A stretch of 36,317 bases of DNA from a virus (Duplodnaviria > Heunggongvirae > Uroviricota > Caudoviricetes): IMG/VR virus record IMGVR_UViG_2617270990_000004; one strand, given 5' to 3'. Of this stretch, positions 11,009-18,153 are shown one piece after another. The notes beneath the pieces are model-generated. The model saw only the letters and a list, made by a program, of their open reading frames with translations, was not told the DNA's origin and did no database searches. A program made the position numbers and the translations under genes. Within the stretch, counting starts at the first letter, position 1, and every line of letters begins with the position of its first letter.

Positions 11009-12946
11009 GTGACTCTTAAACGGGCCTGTTCCCTGCTGACGGTGAAATCCTTCAGTGAGGATGAACGGGTGATCACCGGGATTGCGTCAACGCCTTCTCC
11101 GGATCGGGATGGTGACATCCTGGAGCCGGAGGGCGCGGAGTTTGGCAGTGCGATCCCGTTTCTCTGGCAGCATGACCATTCCCGCCCGGTGGGGCAGTGT
11201 ACGGTGCGTCGGGTCAGCGAAGGGCTGGAAATCACGGCAACACTGGTGAAGCCCGTACCGGATATGCCGTCGCAACTGGCTGCCCGGCTGGATGAGGTCT
11301 GGGCGGCCATTAAGACCGGGCTGGTCAGGGGGCTGTCCGTGGGCTTCCGTCCCCATGAATACACCTTTCTGGACGGAGGCGGACTGCATTTTCTGCGCTG
11401 GGAACTGATGGAGGTGTCTGCCGTCACCGTGCCCGCGAATGCGGAATGCACCATCCGGACCATTAAATCTTACGACCGCCCGTTTTCTGCCGCGTCCGGC
11501 AACCGGAAACCGGTGGTGAAAATCGCATCTTCTGCCGGCGCTGCGGCACAGTCAACAACCGTTTTTCATAAGGAAAAGACCATAATGAATATTGGCGAAC
11601 AGATTAAAAGTTTTGAAAACAAGCGTGCAGCGCTGGCAGCCTCCCTTGAGGAGGTCATGACCAAAGCCGCAGAGGAAGGGCGCACGCTGGATGTGGAGGA
11701 GGAAGAGCATTACGACAACACCGCAGCGGAAATCCGTCAGGTGGATGCGCACCTGAAGCGCCTGCGTGAACTGGAAGCCGGTAAGGCCGCCACGGCGCAG
11801 CCGGTGAAACAGGCCGGTAACGGGAATGTGGCCGCGGTGGCTTCTGCGCCGGTGATCCGTGTGGAGCAGAAACTGGATAAGGGGATTGGCTTCGCCCGCT
11901 TTGCCAAATCGCTGGCTGCGGCTAAAGGCGTCCGATCTGAAGCCCTGGAAGTGGCCCGTCGTCAGTATCCGGATGACAGTCGTCTGCATCATGTCCTGAA
12001 ATCGGCAGTGGGCGCGGGGACCACCACGGATCCGCAGTGGGCAGGCAGCCTGTCTGAATATCAGGAATACGCACAGGACTTTATTGATTACCTGCGTCCG
12101 CAGACCATTATCGGGCGATTTGGTCAGGGCGGGATCCCTGCACTTCGTCAGGTGCCATTCAATATCCGTGTGCACGCCCAGGTGTCCGGCGGTGCTGCCG
12201 GCTGGGTGGGTGAGGGTAAGGCAAAACCCCTGACGAAGTTTGATTTTGAATCCATCACCTTCAGTCATGCGAAGGTGTCGGCCATTGCGGTACTGACGGA
12301 AGAATTGATCCGTTTTTCCAGTCCGGCTGCTGATGCACTGGTCCGTAATGCGCTGGCGGAAGCGGTGGTGGCGCGTCTGGATACAGACTTTGTGGACCCG
12401 AAAAAAGCCGCAGTGGCAGATGTCTCCCCGGCGTCCATCACCCATGATGTGAAGGGCACGGCATCAACCGGTAACCCGGATGCGGATGCAGAGGCTGCGT
12501 TTGGACAGTTTGTGGCAGCAAACCTGCAGCCCACCGGTGCGGTCTGGCTGATGTCCAGCACCAATGCCCTGGCACTGTCCATGCGTAAAAATGCGCTGGG
12601 TCAGAAGGAATACCCGGACATGACCCTGCTGGGTGGCTCCTTCCAGGGGCTGCCGGTGATTGTCTCCCAGTACGTGGGTGACCAGCTGGTGCTGGTGAAT
12701 GCCCCGGATATTTATCTGGCGGATGACGGCGGCGTGGCAGTGGATATGTCCCGCGAGGCATCACTGGAAATGCAGTCTGAGCCGGGCGGCGACAGTACCA
12801 CGCCGTCCCCGGTGGAGCTGGTTTCCATGTTCCAGACAGGCAGCGTGGCCATCCGTGCGGAGCGCTGGATCAACTGGCGTCGTCGCCGTACCGCGGCGGT
12901 GGCGGTGATCACCGGAGTGAACTACGGCAGTGCGTCCGGCGGCTGA
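11009..12946 (+). CDS. fused prohead protease (HK97/S78-type) and HK97-fold major capsid protein
   Basis: 645 aa. N-terminus ITGIASTPSPDRDGDILEPEGAEF...PFLWQHDHSRPVGQ resembles the prohead protease; the middle is a coiled-coil-like, E/A/K-rich segment; the C-terminal part is capsid-like. GTG start with CAGGAGG SD. Confidence 0.85.
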   Translation: MTLKRACSLLTVKSFSEDERVITGIASTPSPDRDGDILEPEGAEFGSAIPFLWQHDHSRPVGQCTVRRVSEGLEITATLVKPVPDMPSQLAARLDEVWAAIKTGLVRGLSVGFRPHEYTFLDGGGLHFLRWELMEVSAVTVPANAECTIRTIKSYDRPFSAASGNRKPVVKIASSAGAAAQSTTVFHKEKTIMNIGEQIKSFENKRAALAASLEEVMTKAAEEGRTLDVEEEEHYDNTAAEIRQVDAHLKRLRELEAGKAATAQPVKQAGNGNVAAVASAPVIRVEQKLDKGIGFARFAKSLAAAKGVRSEALEVARRQYPDDSRLHHVLKSAVGAGTTTDPQWAGSLSEYQEYAQDFIDYLRPQTIIGRFGQGGIPALRQVPFNIRVHAQVSGGAAGWVGEGKAKPLTKFDFESITFSHAKVSAIAVLTEELIRFSSPAADALVRNALAEAVVARLDTDFVDPKKAAVADVSPASITHDVKGTASTGNPDADAEAAFGQFVAANLQPTGAVWLMSSTNALALSMRKNALGQKEYPDMTLLGGSFQGLPVIVSQYVGDQLVLVNAPDIYLADDGGVAVDMSREASLEMQSEPGGDSTTPSPVELVSMFQTGSVAIRAERWINWRRRRTAAVAVITGVNYGSASGG

Positions 12947-12990: not shown

Positions 12991-13212
12991 ATGGCAAAGA
13001 TCCGATATCTGCAGGGCACGCATGATGCCCGGGCCGGGGATATCCGTGATGTGGCACAGCCGTGTGCGGAGGTGCTGGTTCGCCTGGGAAAGGCGGAGTA
13101 CATCACGGTGCGACGTCCGGCAGGTCAGAAAAAGAAACGTGATGCGGAGCATGGCGAATGTGGAACCTTTTACGGCGAACCCGAAAAAACCAGAAATCAG
13201 GACGTGACGTAA
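12991..13212 (+). CDS. hypothetical small protein (73 aa), doubtful
   Basis: ORF between capsid and portal genes, overlapping the portal start by 55 nt. Preceded by the GGGAGGCG-TG-CGCCTCCC hairpin. Confidence 0.2.
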   Translation: MAKIRYLQGTHDARAGDIRDVAQPCAEVLVRLGKAEYITVRRPAGQKKKRDAEHGECGTFYGEPEKTRNQDVT

Positions 13213-15905
13213 GAGAGGCGGGCTGGACCAGCCTGTTTCAGGCGGTGGCTGAGCCCTTTTCCGGCGCCTGGCAGCAGGGCGTGAAAGCCGATCCTGAAGC
13301 CGTCCTCTCCTTTCATGCGGTGTTTGCATGTATTTCGCTGATATCCCAGGATATCGCCAAAATGCGGCTGCGTCTTATGCAGACGGATGCGCATGGGATA
13401 CGCAGGGAAACGCGCCGGGGGGATATTGCCCGCCTCTGTCGTCGTCCCAACGCCCAGCAGAACCGCATCCAGTTTTTTGAACTGTGGCTGAACGCCAAAC
13501 TGCGTCACGGCAATACGGTGGTGCTGAAAATCCGTAATGCCCGGGGGCAGATCAAAGAACTGCGTATTCTGGACTGGAGCCGGGTTGAACCTCTGGTGGC
13601 GGATGACGGCGAGGTGTTCTACCGCATCACGCCGGACCGGAACTGCGGGATCACGGAGGCGGTGACGGTGCCTGCCCGGGAAGTGATCCACGACCGGTTT
13701 AACTGTTTTTTTCATCCGCTTATAGGATTGCCGCCGGTGTATGCCGCCGGGCTGGCGGCCACGCAGGGGCATCATATTCAGGAAAATTCGACGTCTTTTT
13801 TCAGAAATGGTGGCAGGCCGTCCGGGGTGATTGAGATCCCCGGCAGTATTACGGAAGAAAATGCGAAAAAACTGAAGAGCAACTGGGACAGCGGGTATAC
13901 AGGCGAAAATGCGGGGAAAACGGCCATTCTGAGCAACGGGGCAAAATACAACCCCACGACGTTTTCACCTGTGGATGCGCAGACGGTGGAACAACTGAAG
14001 ATGACCGCTGAAATTGTCTGTTCGGTGTTCCGTGTCCCGGCCTACAAGATTGGCGTGGGACAACCGCCTTCCAGTGACAACGTGGAGGCGCTGGAGCAGC
14101 AGTATTATTCCCAGTGCCTGCAGACGCTGATTGAGTCCATTGAACTGTTACTGGATGAGGCGCTGGAAACGGGGGAAAACGAGAGTACAGAATTTGATGT
14201 CACCACGCTGCTGAGAATGGACAGTGAGCGGCGCATGAAAACGCTGGGGGATGCGGTGAAAAATACGCTTCTCACGCCCAATGAGGCCCGTAAACGGGAG
14301 AACCTGCCGCCCCTGGCCGGCGGTGATGCACTGTATCTTCAGCAGCAGAACTACAGTCTGGAGGCGCTGTCCCGTCGTGATGCCCGTGAGGATCCGTTCT
14401 CGTCTGCCGGGAAAACAGTTTCATCACAGCTGCCTGACGGCGCATCTGACGGTAATAAGGCAATCAGTGAAACAGAGCATGATGCGGTGAAAGCGATGTT
14501 CAGGGGGGATACTGAGAAAATGACGGAACGGGAACTGTCCATTATTCGTGCACTGGGAGAAGAATTCTCCACAGTGCTGGCGGATTTACAGCGCACATTT
14601 GAGGGGAAGATGGCCTCGCAGGCACAAGCGTTTGAAGAGAAACTGACTTCCCTGTCGGCGGTATTACAGAAGCATGTGACGGTGGATGAGGTGCGTCCGG
14701 TTCTGCAGGCGATGGTGGATGACGCTGTGGGGGCCATTCCGGTACCGCGTGATGGTCGTGATTATGATCCGGATGTACTGCAGCAGGCGGTGAATGATGC
14801 GGTCGCAAATATTCCGCAGCCGGCGGACGGTAAAAGTCTCACCCCGGATGATGTGCGTCCGATGCTTGAACAGATGGTGAAGGAGGCTGTAAGCCATATC
14901 CCTGTTCTGCGTGATGGTCGTGACTACGATCCGGAAGTACTGCAGAAGGCGGTGAATGATGCGGTCGCAAATATTCCGCAGCCAGCGGACGGTAAAAGTC
15001 TCACCCCGGATGATGTGCGTCCGATGCTTGAACAGATGGTGAAGGAGGCTGTAAGCCATATCCCTGTTCTGCGTGATGGTCGTGACTACGATCCGGAAGT
15101 ACTGCAGAAGGCGGTGAATGATGCGGTCGCAAATATTCCGCAGCCAGCGGACGGTAAAAGTCTCACCCCGGATGATGTGCGTCCGATGCTTGAACAGATG
15201 GTGAAGGAGGCTGTAAGCCATATCCCTGTTCCGCGCGACGGTCGTGACTATGATCCCGATGTTCTGCAGAAGGCGGTGAATGATGCGGTCGCAAATATTC
15301 CGCAGCCGGCAGACGGTAAAAGTCTCACCCCGGATGATGTGCGTCCGATGCTTGAACAGATGGTGAAGGAGGCGGTAAGCCATATTCATGTTCCGCGTGA
15401 TGGTCGTGACTACGATCCGGATGTTCTGCAGAAGGCGGTTCTGGATGCGGTGAGTGCCCTGCCGGCTCCGCAGGACGGGCGTGATGCCACGGCTCTGGAA
15501 ATACTCCCCGCCATTGACGATCAAAAATCCTTTCCCCGGGGCACGTATGCCACACACCAGGGCGGACTCTGGCGGGCGTATGAAAAAACGCACGGGATGC
15601 GGGGATGGGAATGCCTGGTTGACGGGGTGGCGGATATTGACGTCAGCATGACGGGTGAGCGGTTGTTCTCTGTGGTGGTCCGGCAGAGCAGTGGCCAGCG
15701 TACGGAAAAAACATTTTCCCTGCCGGTGATGCTCTACCGCGGTGTGTTCAGAGCCGGTGAAACCTACCACCCCGGCGATACGGTGACGTGGGGGGGCTCG
15801 CTGTGGCACTGCAACAGTATGACCGAAGATAAACCCGGAGAAGCTCATTCATCAGCCTGGACCCTGGCTGCAAAACGTGGGCGGGATGCAGGAGGCGGAA
15901 AATGA
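13158..15905 (+). CDS. portal protein (HK97 family) with a long C-terminal extension containing five 54-aa tandem repeats and a terminal domain
   Basis: 915 aa. Residues 1 to about 400 carry portal hallmarks (SFHAVFACISLISQDIAKMRL; GVIEIPGSITEENAKKLKSNWDSGYTGENAGKTAILSNGAKY; FRVPAYKIGVG). Repeats span about residues 512-781, followed by a roughly 130-aa Trp/Gly-containing tail domain. Confidence 0.85.
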   Translation: MWNLLRRTRKNQKSGRDVREAGWTSLFQAVAEPFSGAWQQGVKADPEAVLSFHAVFACISLISQDIAKMRLRLMQTDAHGIRRETRRGDIARLCRRPNAQQNRIQFFELWLNAKLRHGNTVVLKIRNARGQIKELRILDWSRVEPLVADDGEVFYRITPDRNCGITEAVTVPAREVIHDRFNCFFHPLIGLPPVYAAGLAATQGHHIQENSTSFFRNGGRPSGVIEIPGSITEENAKKLKSNWDSGYTGENAGKTAILSNGAKYNPTTFSPVDAQTVEQLKMTAEIVCSVFRVPAYKIGVGQPPSSDNVEALEQQYYSQCLQTLIESIELLLDEALETGENESTEFDVTTLLRMDSERRMKTLGDAVKNTLLTPNEARKRENLPPLAGGDALYLQQQNYSLEALSRRDAREDPFSSAGKTVSSQLPDGASDGNKAISETEHDAVKAMFRGDTEKMTERELSIIRALGEEFSTVLADLQRTFEGKMASQAQAFEEKLTSLSAVLQKHVTVDEVRPVLQAMVDDAVGAIPVPRDGRDYDPDVLQQAVNDAVANIPQPADGKSLTPDDVRPMLEQMVKEAVSHIPVLRDGRDYDPEVLQKAVNDAVANIPQPADGKSLTPDDVRPMLEQMVKEAVSHIPVLRDGRDYDPEVLQKAVNDAVANIPQPADGKSLTPDDVRPMLEQMVKEAVSHIPVPRDGRDYDPDVLQKAVNDAVANIPQPADGKSLTPDDVRPMLEQMVKEAVSHIHVPRDGRDYDPDVLQKAVLDAVSALPAPQDGRDATALEILPAIDDQKSFPRGTYATHQGGLWRAYEKTHGMRGWECLVDGVADIDVSMTGERLFSVVVRQSSGQRTEKTFSLPVMLYRGVFRAGETYHPGDTVTWGGSLWHCNSMTEDKPGEAHSSAWTLAAKRGRDAGGGK
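14691..15500 (+). repeat. five tandem copies of a 162-bp in-frame coding repeat
   Basis: Unit VRPMLEQMVKEAVSHIPVLRDGRDYDPEVLQKAVNDAVANIPQPADGKSLTPDD. Copies 2 to 4 are nearly identical at DNA level; copies 1 and 5 are diverged. Confidence 0.9.
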
Positions 15906-16228
15906 CGGCATTACTGACACTGGAAGAGATCAAGGCACATCTGCGTGTCGACCATGACGCGGATGATGACATGCTGATGGACAAGGTTCGTCAGGCTACC
16001 GCCGTGCTGCTGGCCTACATTCAGGGCAGCCGGGATAAAGTGATCCGTGAGGACGGTGAACTGATCCCGGGCGAGGCATTAACCCGGATGAAGGGGGCTG
16101 CCATGCGACTGACCGGGATGCTGTACCGGAATCCGGATCTTGCGGAGCGGGAAGAACTGCTTCAGGGGGAGCTGCCGTTTTCTGTTTCCGTGCTGATTTA
16201 CGATTTGCGTTGTCCGACGGTGTTATGA
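15902..16228 (+). CDS. head-tail connector protein (gp6-like)
   Basis: MTALLTLEEIKAHLRVDHDADDDMLMDKVRQATAVLLAYI is the typical N-terminus of this family. ATG overlaps the portal stop. Confidence 0.8.
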   Translation: MTALLTLEEIKAHLRVDHDADDDMLMDKVRQATAVLLAYIQGSRDKVIREDGELIPGEALTRMKGAAMRLTGMLYRNPDLAEREELLQGELPFSVSVLIYDLRCPTVL

Positions 16229-17031: not shown

Positions 17032-17372
17032 CGGAGGCGGATTTGTATCCTCATCTGGCGCATCTTGCCGGCGGGCAGGTGTACCCGTATGTGGTCCCCC
17101 TGCTGGATGGCAGGCCGTCGGTGGCGCTTCCGTGGGTGGTTTTCAGCCTGATTTCATCGGTGTCAGCGGACGTGATGGGCGGGCAGGCGGAGTCCTCAGT
17201 GTCGGTGCAGATAGACGTTTATGCCGGGACTGTGACGCAGGCGCGTCAGATACGTCAGGACGCCCGTGAAGCCATAATGCTGCTGGCCCCGGGATCCGTC
17301 AGTGAAATGCAGGACTATATTCCGGAAAACCGCTGTTACCGTGCAACCCTGGAGTTTCAGGTCACGGTGTGA
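17028..17372 (+). CDS. tail completion / tail terminator-like protein
   Basis: 114 aa; position between the neck protein and major tail protein. Confidence 0.6.
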   Translation: MTEADLYPHLAHLAGGQVYPYVVPLLDGRPSVALPWVVFSLISSVSADVMGGQAESSVSVQIDVYAGTVTQARQIRQDAREAIMLLAPGSVSEMQDYIPENRCYRATLEFQVTV

Positions 17373-17398
17373 CTTTTTCTTTTTTCTACAAAACCATA

Positions 17399-17422
17399 CC
17401 CCGCCGCGTGCGGGGTTTTTAT
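17399..17422 (+). terminator. candidate rho-independent terminator / attenuator upstream of the major tail gene
   Basis: CCCCGC-CGCGT-GCGGGG hairpin followed by TTTTTATTAT. Confidence 0.45.
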
Positions 17423-17436
17423 TATCAGGAGGCAGA

Positions 17437-18153
17437 ATGTCTGCTTTGTATGAACGCTCACAGCTGACGCAGGTGATGATTTCATCTGCCCCGGCGACTG
17501 CTGAAACTATGGATAAGGCGGAATATCTGCGCCTGGATTGCACCATCAAGGAAGTCCAGTTCACCGCCGGTCAGAAACAGGATATTGATGTGACCACGCT
17601 CTGCTCCACCGAGCAGGAGAACATCAACGGTCTGGGGGCGTCGTCTGAGATTTCCATGTCGGGTAATTTTTATCTGAATCAGGCCCAGAACGCCCTGCGT
17701 GATGCCTATGACAATGACGCGTTGTATGCGTTTAAGGTGCTGTTTCCGTCCGGTAAGGGCTTTAAGTTCCTGGCGGAAGTGCGTCAGCACACCTGGTCAT
17801 CCGGTACCAACGGCGTGGTGGCAGCAACGTTTTCACTGCGTATGAAAGGCAAACCGGTGTCCTTTGTGGTACCGCTGGCGTTTGTGAAAAATCTGGATAA
17901 AACACTTACCGTGAATACAGGTGCGCTGCTGACAATGTCAGTCAGTGCCAACGGGGGAACGCCGCCGTATAAATACGCCTGGAAGAAGGATGGTCAGCCG
18001 GTTGACGGGCAGACGACAGACACCTTCAGTAAGCCAGGTGCGCAGTCCGCTGATGCGGGGAAATATACCTGCGTGGTGACCGATTCGGCAGAGAAAGCAC
18101 AGAGTGTGACGTCTGTTGAATGCACCGTGACAGTGAGCGCAGCCGCCGGATAA
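17437..18153 (+). CDS. major tail protein with C-terminal Ig-like domain
   Basis: 238 aa with AGGAGG SD. C-terminus TLTVNTGALLTMSVSANGGTPPYKYAWKKDGQPVDG...GKYTCVVTD looks Ig-like. Confidence 0.8.
   Translation: MSALYERSQLTQVMISSAPATAETMDKAEYLRLDCTIKEVQFTAGQKQDIDVTTLCSTEQENINGLGASSEISMSGNFYLNQAQNALRDAYDNDALYAFKVLFPSGKGFKFLAEVRQHTWSSGTNGVVAATFSLRMKGKPVSFVVPLAFVKNLDKTLTVNTGALLTMSVSANGGTPPYKYAWKKDGQPVDGQTTDTFSKPGAQSADAGKYTCVVTDSAEKAQSVTSVECTVTVSAAAG

Follow-up and report, generated by a model that had tools for sequence, protein, structure and literature searches.

The tailed-phage sequence IMGVR_UViG_2617270990_000004 (Caudoviricetes; 36,317 nucleotides (nt), all of which is referred to as the window) contains, at 13158-15905 on the plus strand, a single uninterrupted open reading frame (ORF) of 915 aa that begins as a portal protein and continues far beyond it. 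What this second part is, and how it came to be joined to a portal, is the question raised by the locus. In a first reading made without database searches (the sequence-only reading), the ORF was described as a portal with an extension. Comparison with relatives gave a different picture for the second half: residues 455-915 correspond to the product of a separate, conserved gene, called the partner in the following, and the 915-aa ORF is very probably an in-frame fusion, by one base, of the portal gene and this coupled neighbour.

Origin of the 915-residue reading frame

That the N-terminus is an HK97-family portal, as predicted before, was borne out by two family models scoring well above their cut-offs. 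Pfam Phage_portal (PF04860) covers aa 54-382 (E = 6e-81; 272.5 bits, cut-off 39.1), and TIGR01537 (portal_HK97) is matched over its full length by aa 45-388 (E = 1.5e-104; 349.8 bits, cut-off 112). The portal core, aa 1-389 (13158-14324, plus strand), is 41-68% identical to portals from 18 loci of three proteobacterial classes. An alignment had been proposed to find where portal homology ends; the two models stop at aa 382 and 388, and the portals of relatives in Alpha-, Beta- and Gammaproteobacteria end at about 450 aa. The core is followed by an acidic C-terminal tail, aa 390-454 (14325-14519, plus strand; isoelectric point (pI) 4.7), which is without a family match in the libraries searched and serves as the linker in the fused protein. 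The portal half of the fusion is an ordinary member of the HK97 family.

Searches with the domain at the end of the ORF returned mostly short proteins, many of them 245 aa long and starting with MTERELSII or MNERELSII, which corresponds to window residue 455. The codon for this methionine is an ATG at 14520-14522 on the plus strand, in frame within the fused ORF, and it is the start codon of the stand-alone homologues. In three Escherichia coli prophages (L002-L004), a gene for a 454-aa portal is followed by an overlapping gene (ATGA) for a 245-aa protein and then by a gp6-like adaptor gene. When the junctions were aligned, a difference of one base was seen: the window has GGGGGG at 14503-14508 (plus strand) and the three prophages have GGGGG. 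With five G residues (G5), the portal ends in AMFRGILRK followed by a stop codon, and the partner starts at the overlapping ATG. With six (G6), the sequence reads FRGDTEK-MTERELS and continues in frame to give 915 aa. Since the G5 portal end fits the family consensus AMLRGLLTK and G6 destroys that end, the split layout is, judged from these alignments, the ancestral one, and the fusion found in the window is derived though common.

The G-run is not only the fusion site but also the Shine-Dalgarno (SD) sequence of the partner gene. Across 44 loci, the 20 nt preceding the partner start pair with the anti-SD sequence at a mean of -6.1 kcal/mol, compared to -2.9 kcal/mol inside portal ORFs; values of -5 kcal/mol or lower were obtained for 73% of the partner starts versus 22% of the background (Mann-Whitney p ~1e-15). 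The element is located about 11 nt before the partner ATG and reads AGAGGA, AAGGAG or AAGGGG, and AGGGGG in the E. coli phages. Upstream of the ATG at 14520 in the window, the pairing energy is -10.2 kcal/mol, and the G6 allele retains both the SD element and the ATG.

These features suggest how the two states would operate. In the ancestral arrangement, the SD sequence of the partner would lie within the last portal codons and its ATG would overlap the portal stop codon, resulting in translational coupling. One additional G would take the portal stop out of frame and lead to read-through into the partner. As neither the SD element nor the ATG at 14520 is affected, a free partner of 461 aa could probably also be made from the fused allele by internal initiation. 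In this respect the locus resembles lambda C/Nu3 and lambda G/GT, in that an in-frame internal SD and ATG could give a long and a short product. Unlike these systems, however, the long and short forms are here mainly fixed alternative alleles that are one base apart.

The distribution of the partner gene was determined in two samples. In a scan at species level, with one genome per species, 55 loci were obtained from Enterobacterales, Pseudomonas, Marinobacter, several Betaproteobacteria and many Rhizobiales. They share a cassette encoding the large terminase subunit (TerL), protease/capsid, portal, partner, gp6-like adaptor and head closure proteins. Almost all of them encode the partner in an ORF of its own, with an overlap of 1-17 nt at the portal stop, mostly as ATGA. 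The second sample consisted of 80 viral contigs chosen by the portal alone (46-100% identity), which avoided selection on the partner. Here, 64 loci have a separate partner and six a fused one, eight end too early, and two are odd. Among the 72 loci with enough downstream sequence, the partner follows the portal in 70, and the adaptor gene stands directly after the portal in none of the 80. Outside E. coli, fusions are rare and independent; they specify proteins of 1237/1243 aa (L009, L010, L130), 616 aa (L134) and, with a collagen stalk, 670 aa (L065).

Architecture of the partner protein

The partner varies in length from 196 to 808 aa and is composed of an N-terminal helix, a stalk and a C-terminal domain. 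AlphaFold models were calculated for the natural 245-aa form, based on an alignment of 26 sequences, and for the 461-aa form of the window. The 245-aa model shows a long N-terminal helix, short helices in the repeat units and an end domain rich in beta structure. The N-terminal helix (aa 455-507; 14520-14678, plus strand) is predicted as one helix spanning residues 3-50 of the stand-alone partner, at low to medium confidence. It carries the motif MNERELS.I.A.GEE, which is conserved in Enterobacterales; more widely, the helix varies with the portal lineage.

The stalk comprises aa 508-786 (14679-15515, plus strand). Its true repeat unit is 27 aa long, a helix followed by a loop of Pro, Asp and Gly residues, and occurs in two alternating types, PVPRDGRDYDPDVLQKAVNDAVANIPQ and PADGKSLTPDDVRPMLEQMVKEAVSHI, giving about 10.5 units. 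With a pI of 4.4 and a net charge of -24, the stalk is very acidic. In the 461-aa model, helices of 13-17 residues alternate with loops of about 12 residues, with a predicted local distance difference test (pLDDT) score of 30-46 for the monomer. When solved structures were searched by sequence with aa 455-915, the only matches were weak ones to designed helical repeat proteins.

Two neighbouring 27-aa units make up the 162-bp (54-aa) tandem repeat seen at the DNA level. Five such repeats had been proposed. The tandem array is real but contains four complete copies, at 14739-15386 on the plus strand, with pairwise identities of 93-100% and degenerate half-units on both sides; Tandem Repeats Finder reported 14745-15439 with a period of 162, 4.3 copies, 95% matches and a score of 1257. 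Copies 2 to 4 had also been called nearly identical, which is roughly right: copies 2 and 3 are identical (100%), and the identity to these two is 95.1% for copy 1 and 93.2% for copy 4. The expectation that the copy number varies between strains was confirmed. The 54-aa unit is present 0, 1, 2, 3, 4 or 6 times in E. coli-type loci, resulting in partners of 245, 299, 353, 407, 461 and 569 aa, and genes of about 2424, 2586 and 2748 nt were found in a spread sample of complete genomes. The 162-bp array only sets the length of the stalk, which changes freely. Its composition also differs among relatives. Collagen-type GXY repeats replace the 27-aa units in several homologues (P0117, P0120, P0128, L065, L122), with long tracts in both L065 and L122 (in the latter up to about 230 residues); they are absent from the window copy according to Pfam (PF01391). 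In other relatives, the stalk is built from proline-rich units of the PELPDV type.

The sequence-only reading had also anticipated trouble in short-read assemblies, and many proteins designated partial were indeed found on contigs of 1.6-7 kb or at contig ends. Such entries fit short-read assemblies breaking in or near a repeat gene that is present in several copies; the median is five matching places per genome. Among them are fragments from Klebsiella, Enterobacter and Salmonella (P0067, P0074, P0077 and others; L148, 1-591) named "phage gp6-like head-tail connector protein, partial". These fragments consist only of repeat units and the end domain; the ORF that follows is the true gp6-like gene. 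A fusion of partner and adaptor, which the Klebsiella names suggested, was therefore rejected, as these were misnamed fragments from contig ends.

The C-terminal domain (aa 787-915; 15516-15902, plus strand) had been recognized before as a distinct unit of about 130 aa. It is 129 aa long, near neutral (pI 8.0), and beta-rich in both AlphaFold models, with mean pLDDT values per ten residues of about 76-93 and 79-90 over most of its length; only the final residues are disordered. Structure prediction, which had been proposed for the repeats and the terminal domain, thus gave a confident result for the latter and pLDDT values of only 30-46 for the stalk. By eye, a motif resembling carbohydrate-binding modules (CBM) of family 5/12 is present twice, as YPRGTYATHxGGLWRA...GWEC and as PGDTVTWGGSLWHC...KPGE...WTLA, and two Cys residues and one His residue are invariant. 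For the CBM_5_12 family (PF02839), the homologue P0128 reaches 28.6 bits, and many homologues have a precomputed match. Matches in the BFVD database were to phage proteins with collagen and ChiC_BD domains; by structure, the resemblance is to chitin-binding modules and, weakly, to tail fibres.

Searches with the end domain detected 5502 representative relatives at E <=0.001. Among the relatives listed, it is almost always located at the C-terminus of a stand-alone protein of 200-500 aa, and its identity across bacterial classes is 45-60%. In one locus (L146, 2836-5220), a related portal is followed by a 794-aa coiled-coil/repeat protein that shares units of the type IPxPxDGKDG but lacks the CBM-like tip, an indication that this tip may be exchanged or lost. 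None of the named families in Pfam, PHROGs or NCBIfam includes the partner; a precomputed Pfam list places a newer entry, PF28083.1, on the extension (e.g. in P0385 and P0332). No paper on the partner protein was found in the literature on portal frameshifts and repeats in Shiga toxin (Stx) phages, protease-capsid fusions, neck fibres and virion proteomes.

Possible roles at the portal vertex

Any proposal for the function of the partner has to take the head module into account. In the window, the genes for the small (TerS) and large terminase subunits lie upstream, followed by the protease/capsid ORF, and the module continues downstream of the portal with genes for a gp6-like adaptor, a head closure protein, and gp10-like and gp17-like proteins. 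A scaffolding role had been argued from the apparent absence of a scaffold gene. This argument was rejected, because the ORF at 11009-12946 (plus strand, 645 aa) joins a prohead protease, a coiled coil and the major capsid protein: an S78 protease (PF04586) is found at aa 48-152, an HK97-type capsid protein (PF05065) at aa 386-635, TIGR01554 is matched, and the match to NF045541 at aa 48-287 includes the scaffold part of this NCBIfam protease/capsid fusion model. The scaffold would accordingly be supplied by this ORF. Some loci of Beta- and Alphaproteobacteria have the protease and the capsid protein in ORFs of their own; the order of capsid gene before portal gene is conserved across the three proteobacterial classes. 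The adaptor gene (15902-16228, plus strand; PF05135) overlaps the stop codon of the fused ORF with its ATG (ATGA), and this overlap and the gene order recur in nearly all related loci.

Compared with other HK97-type modules, the locus agrees in having a portal that matches the family model over its full length, followed by genes for a gp6-like adaptor, head closure and gp10-like proteins. It differs in the position of the portal gene, which stands after and not before the capsid gene, in the fusion of protease and capsid protein, and in the portal itself, which has a 65-aa acidic tail and, joined in frame, a foreign protein of 461 aa.

Between capsid and portal lies a 73-aa ORF (12991-13212, plus strand; phrog_829, function unknown), whose last 55 nt are shared with the portal start. 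The same position is occupied by a small ORF in E. coli, E. albertii, Salmonella phage FSL SP-016 and metagenomic relatives. Further downstream, at 17302-18153 on the plus strand, a major tail protein with a C-terminal immunoglobulin-like (Ig-like) domain (Ig_3, I-set) is encoded, by its sequence a second module of the surface-display type in the same virion.

For the partner itself, the reading favoured here, though tentatively, is that of an accessory fibre of the portal vertex, located at the neck or outside and ending in a tip of the glycan-binding type. The N-terminus would serve as the anchor at the portal region, and a stalk of variable length would lie between anchor and tip. As collagen needs three chains, the collagen-bearing homologues suggest that the partner is probably a trimer. 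From the fused allele, each of the twelve portal subunits would carry a fibre, perhaps in addition to free fibre initiated internally. A location outside is favoured by the collagen tracts, the CBM-like tip, the matches resembling tail fibres and the free variation in length. The overall build, with an N-terminal anchor, a variable stalk and a small beta-structured tip, is like that of phage fibres with collagen stalks and CBM5/12 (ChiC_BD) domains, of T4 fibritin and of the phi29 head fibres. Unlike collagen/CBM fibres, the partner is encoded in the head module beside the portal and not among the tail genes; and unlike typical receptor-binding fibres, it has a conserved tip and a variable N-terminus, the reverse of the usual pattern.

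Several observations weigh against a fibre. Fusions to the portal C-terminus have arisen at least four times independently (E. coli G6, L009/L130, L134, L065). In solved structures, portal C-termini face the capsid interior. Taken together, these two points argue that the partner starts inside the head, which fits poorly with an external fibre. The tip is about as conserved across classes as the portal, which is unusual for a host-recognition tip. At aa 865-887 of the window protein, PF02839 scores 18.9 bits and stays below its cut-off of 26.2; a Foldseek search of the PDB found nothing at E <=0.001, and glycan binding by the tip is accordingly a resemblance and not a result. No reliable stalk fold was obtained from AlphaFold for the 461-aa monomer, and the phi330 paper and its supplement contain mass-spectrometry maps only for short-tailed phages and none for phi330, a phage with the fused allele.

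The strongest alternative, considered rather unlikely but to be taken seriously, is that the partner is an internal head protein bound to the portal crown, either of the SPP1 gp7/Mu F type or forming a barrel or core in the style of P22. It would act in prohead nucleation, in spooling or retention of DNA, or in genome delivery, and the fusion would be a covalent version of a normal contact. The repeated origin of C-terminal portal fusions speaks for it, one of which is the majority allele in E. coli and is found in the plaque-forming phage phi330, as does the gene slot directly after the portal, which is the slot of Mu F-type head morphogenesis genes in other modules. The near-universal association with this portal clade (70/72 loci) points in the same direction, and so do the 45-60% identity of the end domain across classes, as in a core structural part, and the strong acidity of the stalk, a property known in general from scaffolding proteins. 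However, neither Phage_Mu_F (PF04233) nor another head-protein family was matched by the whole ORF or by aa 401-915 in Pfam, PHROGs or NCBIfam, and membership in the Mu F/gp7 family was rejected for want of such a match. A collagen tract of about 230 residues, as in L122, would match the width of a capsid, and neither the CBM5/12-like tip nor the tail-fibre-like matches have a known role inside a head. The occurrence of 0-6 stalk units among nearly identical phages argues against a ruler-like function.

The partner gene thus resembles SPP1 gp7 and Mu F in its position immediately downstream of the portal and in its tight coupling, and the occasional fusion suggests a physical partner of the portal; it differs from them in consisting of a helix, a repeat or collagen stalk and a CBM-like beta domain instead of a Mu F fold. 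The nearest analogues are therefore Mu F/gp7-type partners by position and phage fibres with collagen and CBM domains by build, although the sequence tests for both failed. A decoration or ejection role, which the sequence-only reading had listed beside scaffolding, is possible.

In Pseudomonas phage AH14a, a Mu F-type head morphogenesis protein encoded after the portal has been detected in heads by mass spectrometry, an example in favour of the internal alternative. The papers on AH14a and on roseophage R4C concern other head modules.

Alleles of the G-run and their consequences

The frequency of both junctions was determined by counting the exact 71-nt (G6) or 70-nt (G5) sequence in 1058 matching complete E. 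coli records. The fused junction was present in 752 and the split junction in 362 of them, and some genomes carry both in different prophages. In a phage collection of 83 records, G6 was detected in ten (phi330, 2851, YYZ-2008, WGPS6 and three vB_EcoS records, some duplicated as GenBank and RefSeq copies) and G5 in 49, mostly Stx1a and Stx2c prophages. Backgrounds can be nearly the same: one G6 locus (L007) and one G5 locus (L008) each differ from the window at 16 positions across the whole gene (~99.4% identity). Downstream proteins of 353, 407 and 461 aa are found in both states, so the tract must have changed more than once or must have been moved by recombination.

Both alleles occur in phages that form particles. 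The fused allele is carried by phi330, which yields plaques at ~1e9 plaque-forming units per mL, and is also present in the records of phages 2851, YYZ-2008 and WGPS6. The split allele is found in Lys8385Vzw, an induced phage seen by transmission electron microscopy, with a 454-aa portal and the 245-aa gene, and in BP-4795, where it was annotated by its authors as ORF58 (portal) and ORF59 (461 aa).

The phi330 record (L001, PV189401.1, 3875-6623) deviates from the window by five indels in this gene: CT is gained near 14433 and A near 15414, and G is missing at 15456 and at 15497. As a result, three coding sequences are annotated. In dozens of complete RefSeq E. coli chromosomes (e.g. NZ_CP026723.1, NZ_CP049118.1, NZ_CP048934.1), the portal gene also begins at exactly 3875 (3875-6460). 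This would put base 1 of the chromosome at the start of the large terminase gene of the prophage, as in the phi330 record, and looks like automated re-orientation picking a phage terminase.

Selection was estimated from the ratio of nonsynonymous to synonymous substitution rates (dN/dS) for the non-repeat parts of the partner, the N-terminal helix and the end domain (198 codons). Values of 0.11-0.32 were obtained in fused-fused, fused-split and split-split pairs, compared to 0.05-0.26 for the portal. As the ratio is low in both states, the extension is maintained and is not decaying. No correlation was seen between the dS values of the portal and partner segments, an indication of recombination between the two.

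If the fibre reading and the allele data are put together, the partner could be a hitherto undescribed portal-anchored fibre with a tandem CBM5/12-like tip, present clade-wide in the HK97-like siphophages and prophages of Alpha-, Beta- and Gammaproteobacteria, including long-tailed Shiga toxin phages, with the G-run as a one-base toggle between free and tethered protein. This combined proposal is improbable as it stands; if true, tethering to all twelve portal subunits would change adhesion, stability or DNA delivery.

It is also improbable that the G-run is a true switch or recoding site, acting either as a heritable on/off tract or through ribosomal or transcriptional slippage that supplies free and tethered protein in a set ratio. 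The tract does differ in length between close relatives and alters the reading frame, as is characteristic of phase-variable tracts. Both lengths are frequent, on nearly identical backgrounds and in several copy-number classes, both alleles reside together in different prophages of some genomes, and, judged from the sequence, slippage by -1 in G5 or by +1 in G6 would yield the other product. But a run of five or six G residues is, by general experience, short for efficient phase variation or transcript slippage, and no canonical X XXY YYZ heptamer was found in the zero frame at the junction, where only the G-run is present. Outside E. coli, the SD sequence is mostly AGAGGA, AAGGAG or AAGGG and contains no homopolymer, although the layout is unchanged. 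Recombination between co-resident prophages could spread the alleles without repeated switching, and the differing dS of portal and partner segments points to mosaicism.

An artefact of sequencing or assembly can practically be dismissed on the allele counts: a change by one base in a homopolymer is a classic type of error, and the phi330 record has its five other indels in the fused gene, but 752 complete E. coli records contain the exact G6 junction, as do the independently sequenced phages 2851, YYZ-2008 and WGPS6, intact fused proteins are annotated in RefSeq, and the fused ORF is under purifying selection between fused lineages (dN/dS 0.13). A frameshift between 14400 and 14700 had been considered before as a source of a false fusion; the spot is indeed the G-run, but its two lengths are natural alleles.

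The alleles matter for annotation. While RefSeq annotates the fused proteins as intact, the NCBI pipeline PGAP labels the G5 form as frameshifted, and some phage records call it a pseudogene. About one third of the prophage copies are thereby designated frameshifted portal pseudogenes, although G5 is the ancestral layout and is found in phages making particles; for these reasons, calls of a defective portal that rest on this frameshift may be wrong. In E. coli Sakai, the prophages Sp6, Sp9 and Sp12 were scored as portal-defective, yet DNA of Sp9 was packaged and Sp6 was transferred (PMC2669165, Table 1). All three have a head region of the type described here, and their portal defect may be the two-gene layout of G5. 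In addition, repeat counts taken from short-read assemblies of this gene should not be trusted, given the identical 162-bp copies and the presence of several gene copies per genome.

The partner is a nearly universal, uncharacterized companion of this portal clade with thousands of relatives, including some from Stx phages of medical importance. Given its gene position and the recurrent fusions to the portal, it is a candidate, open to experiment, for a new component of the portal vertex.

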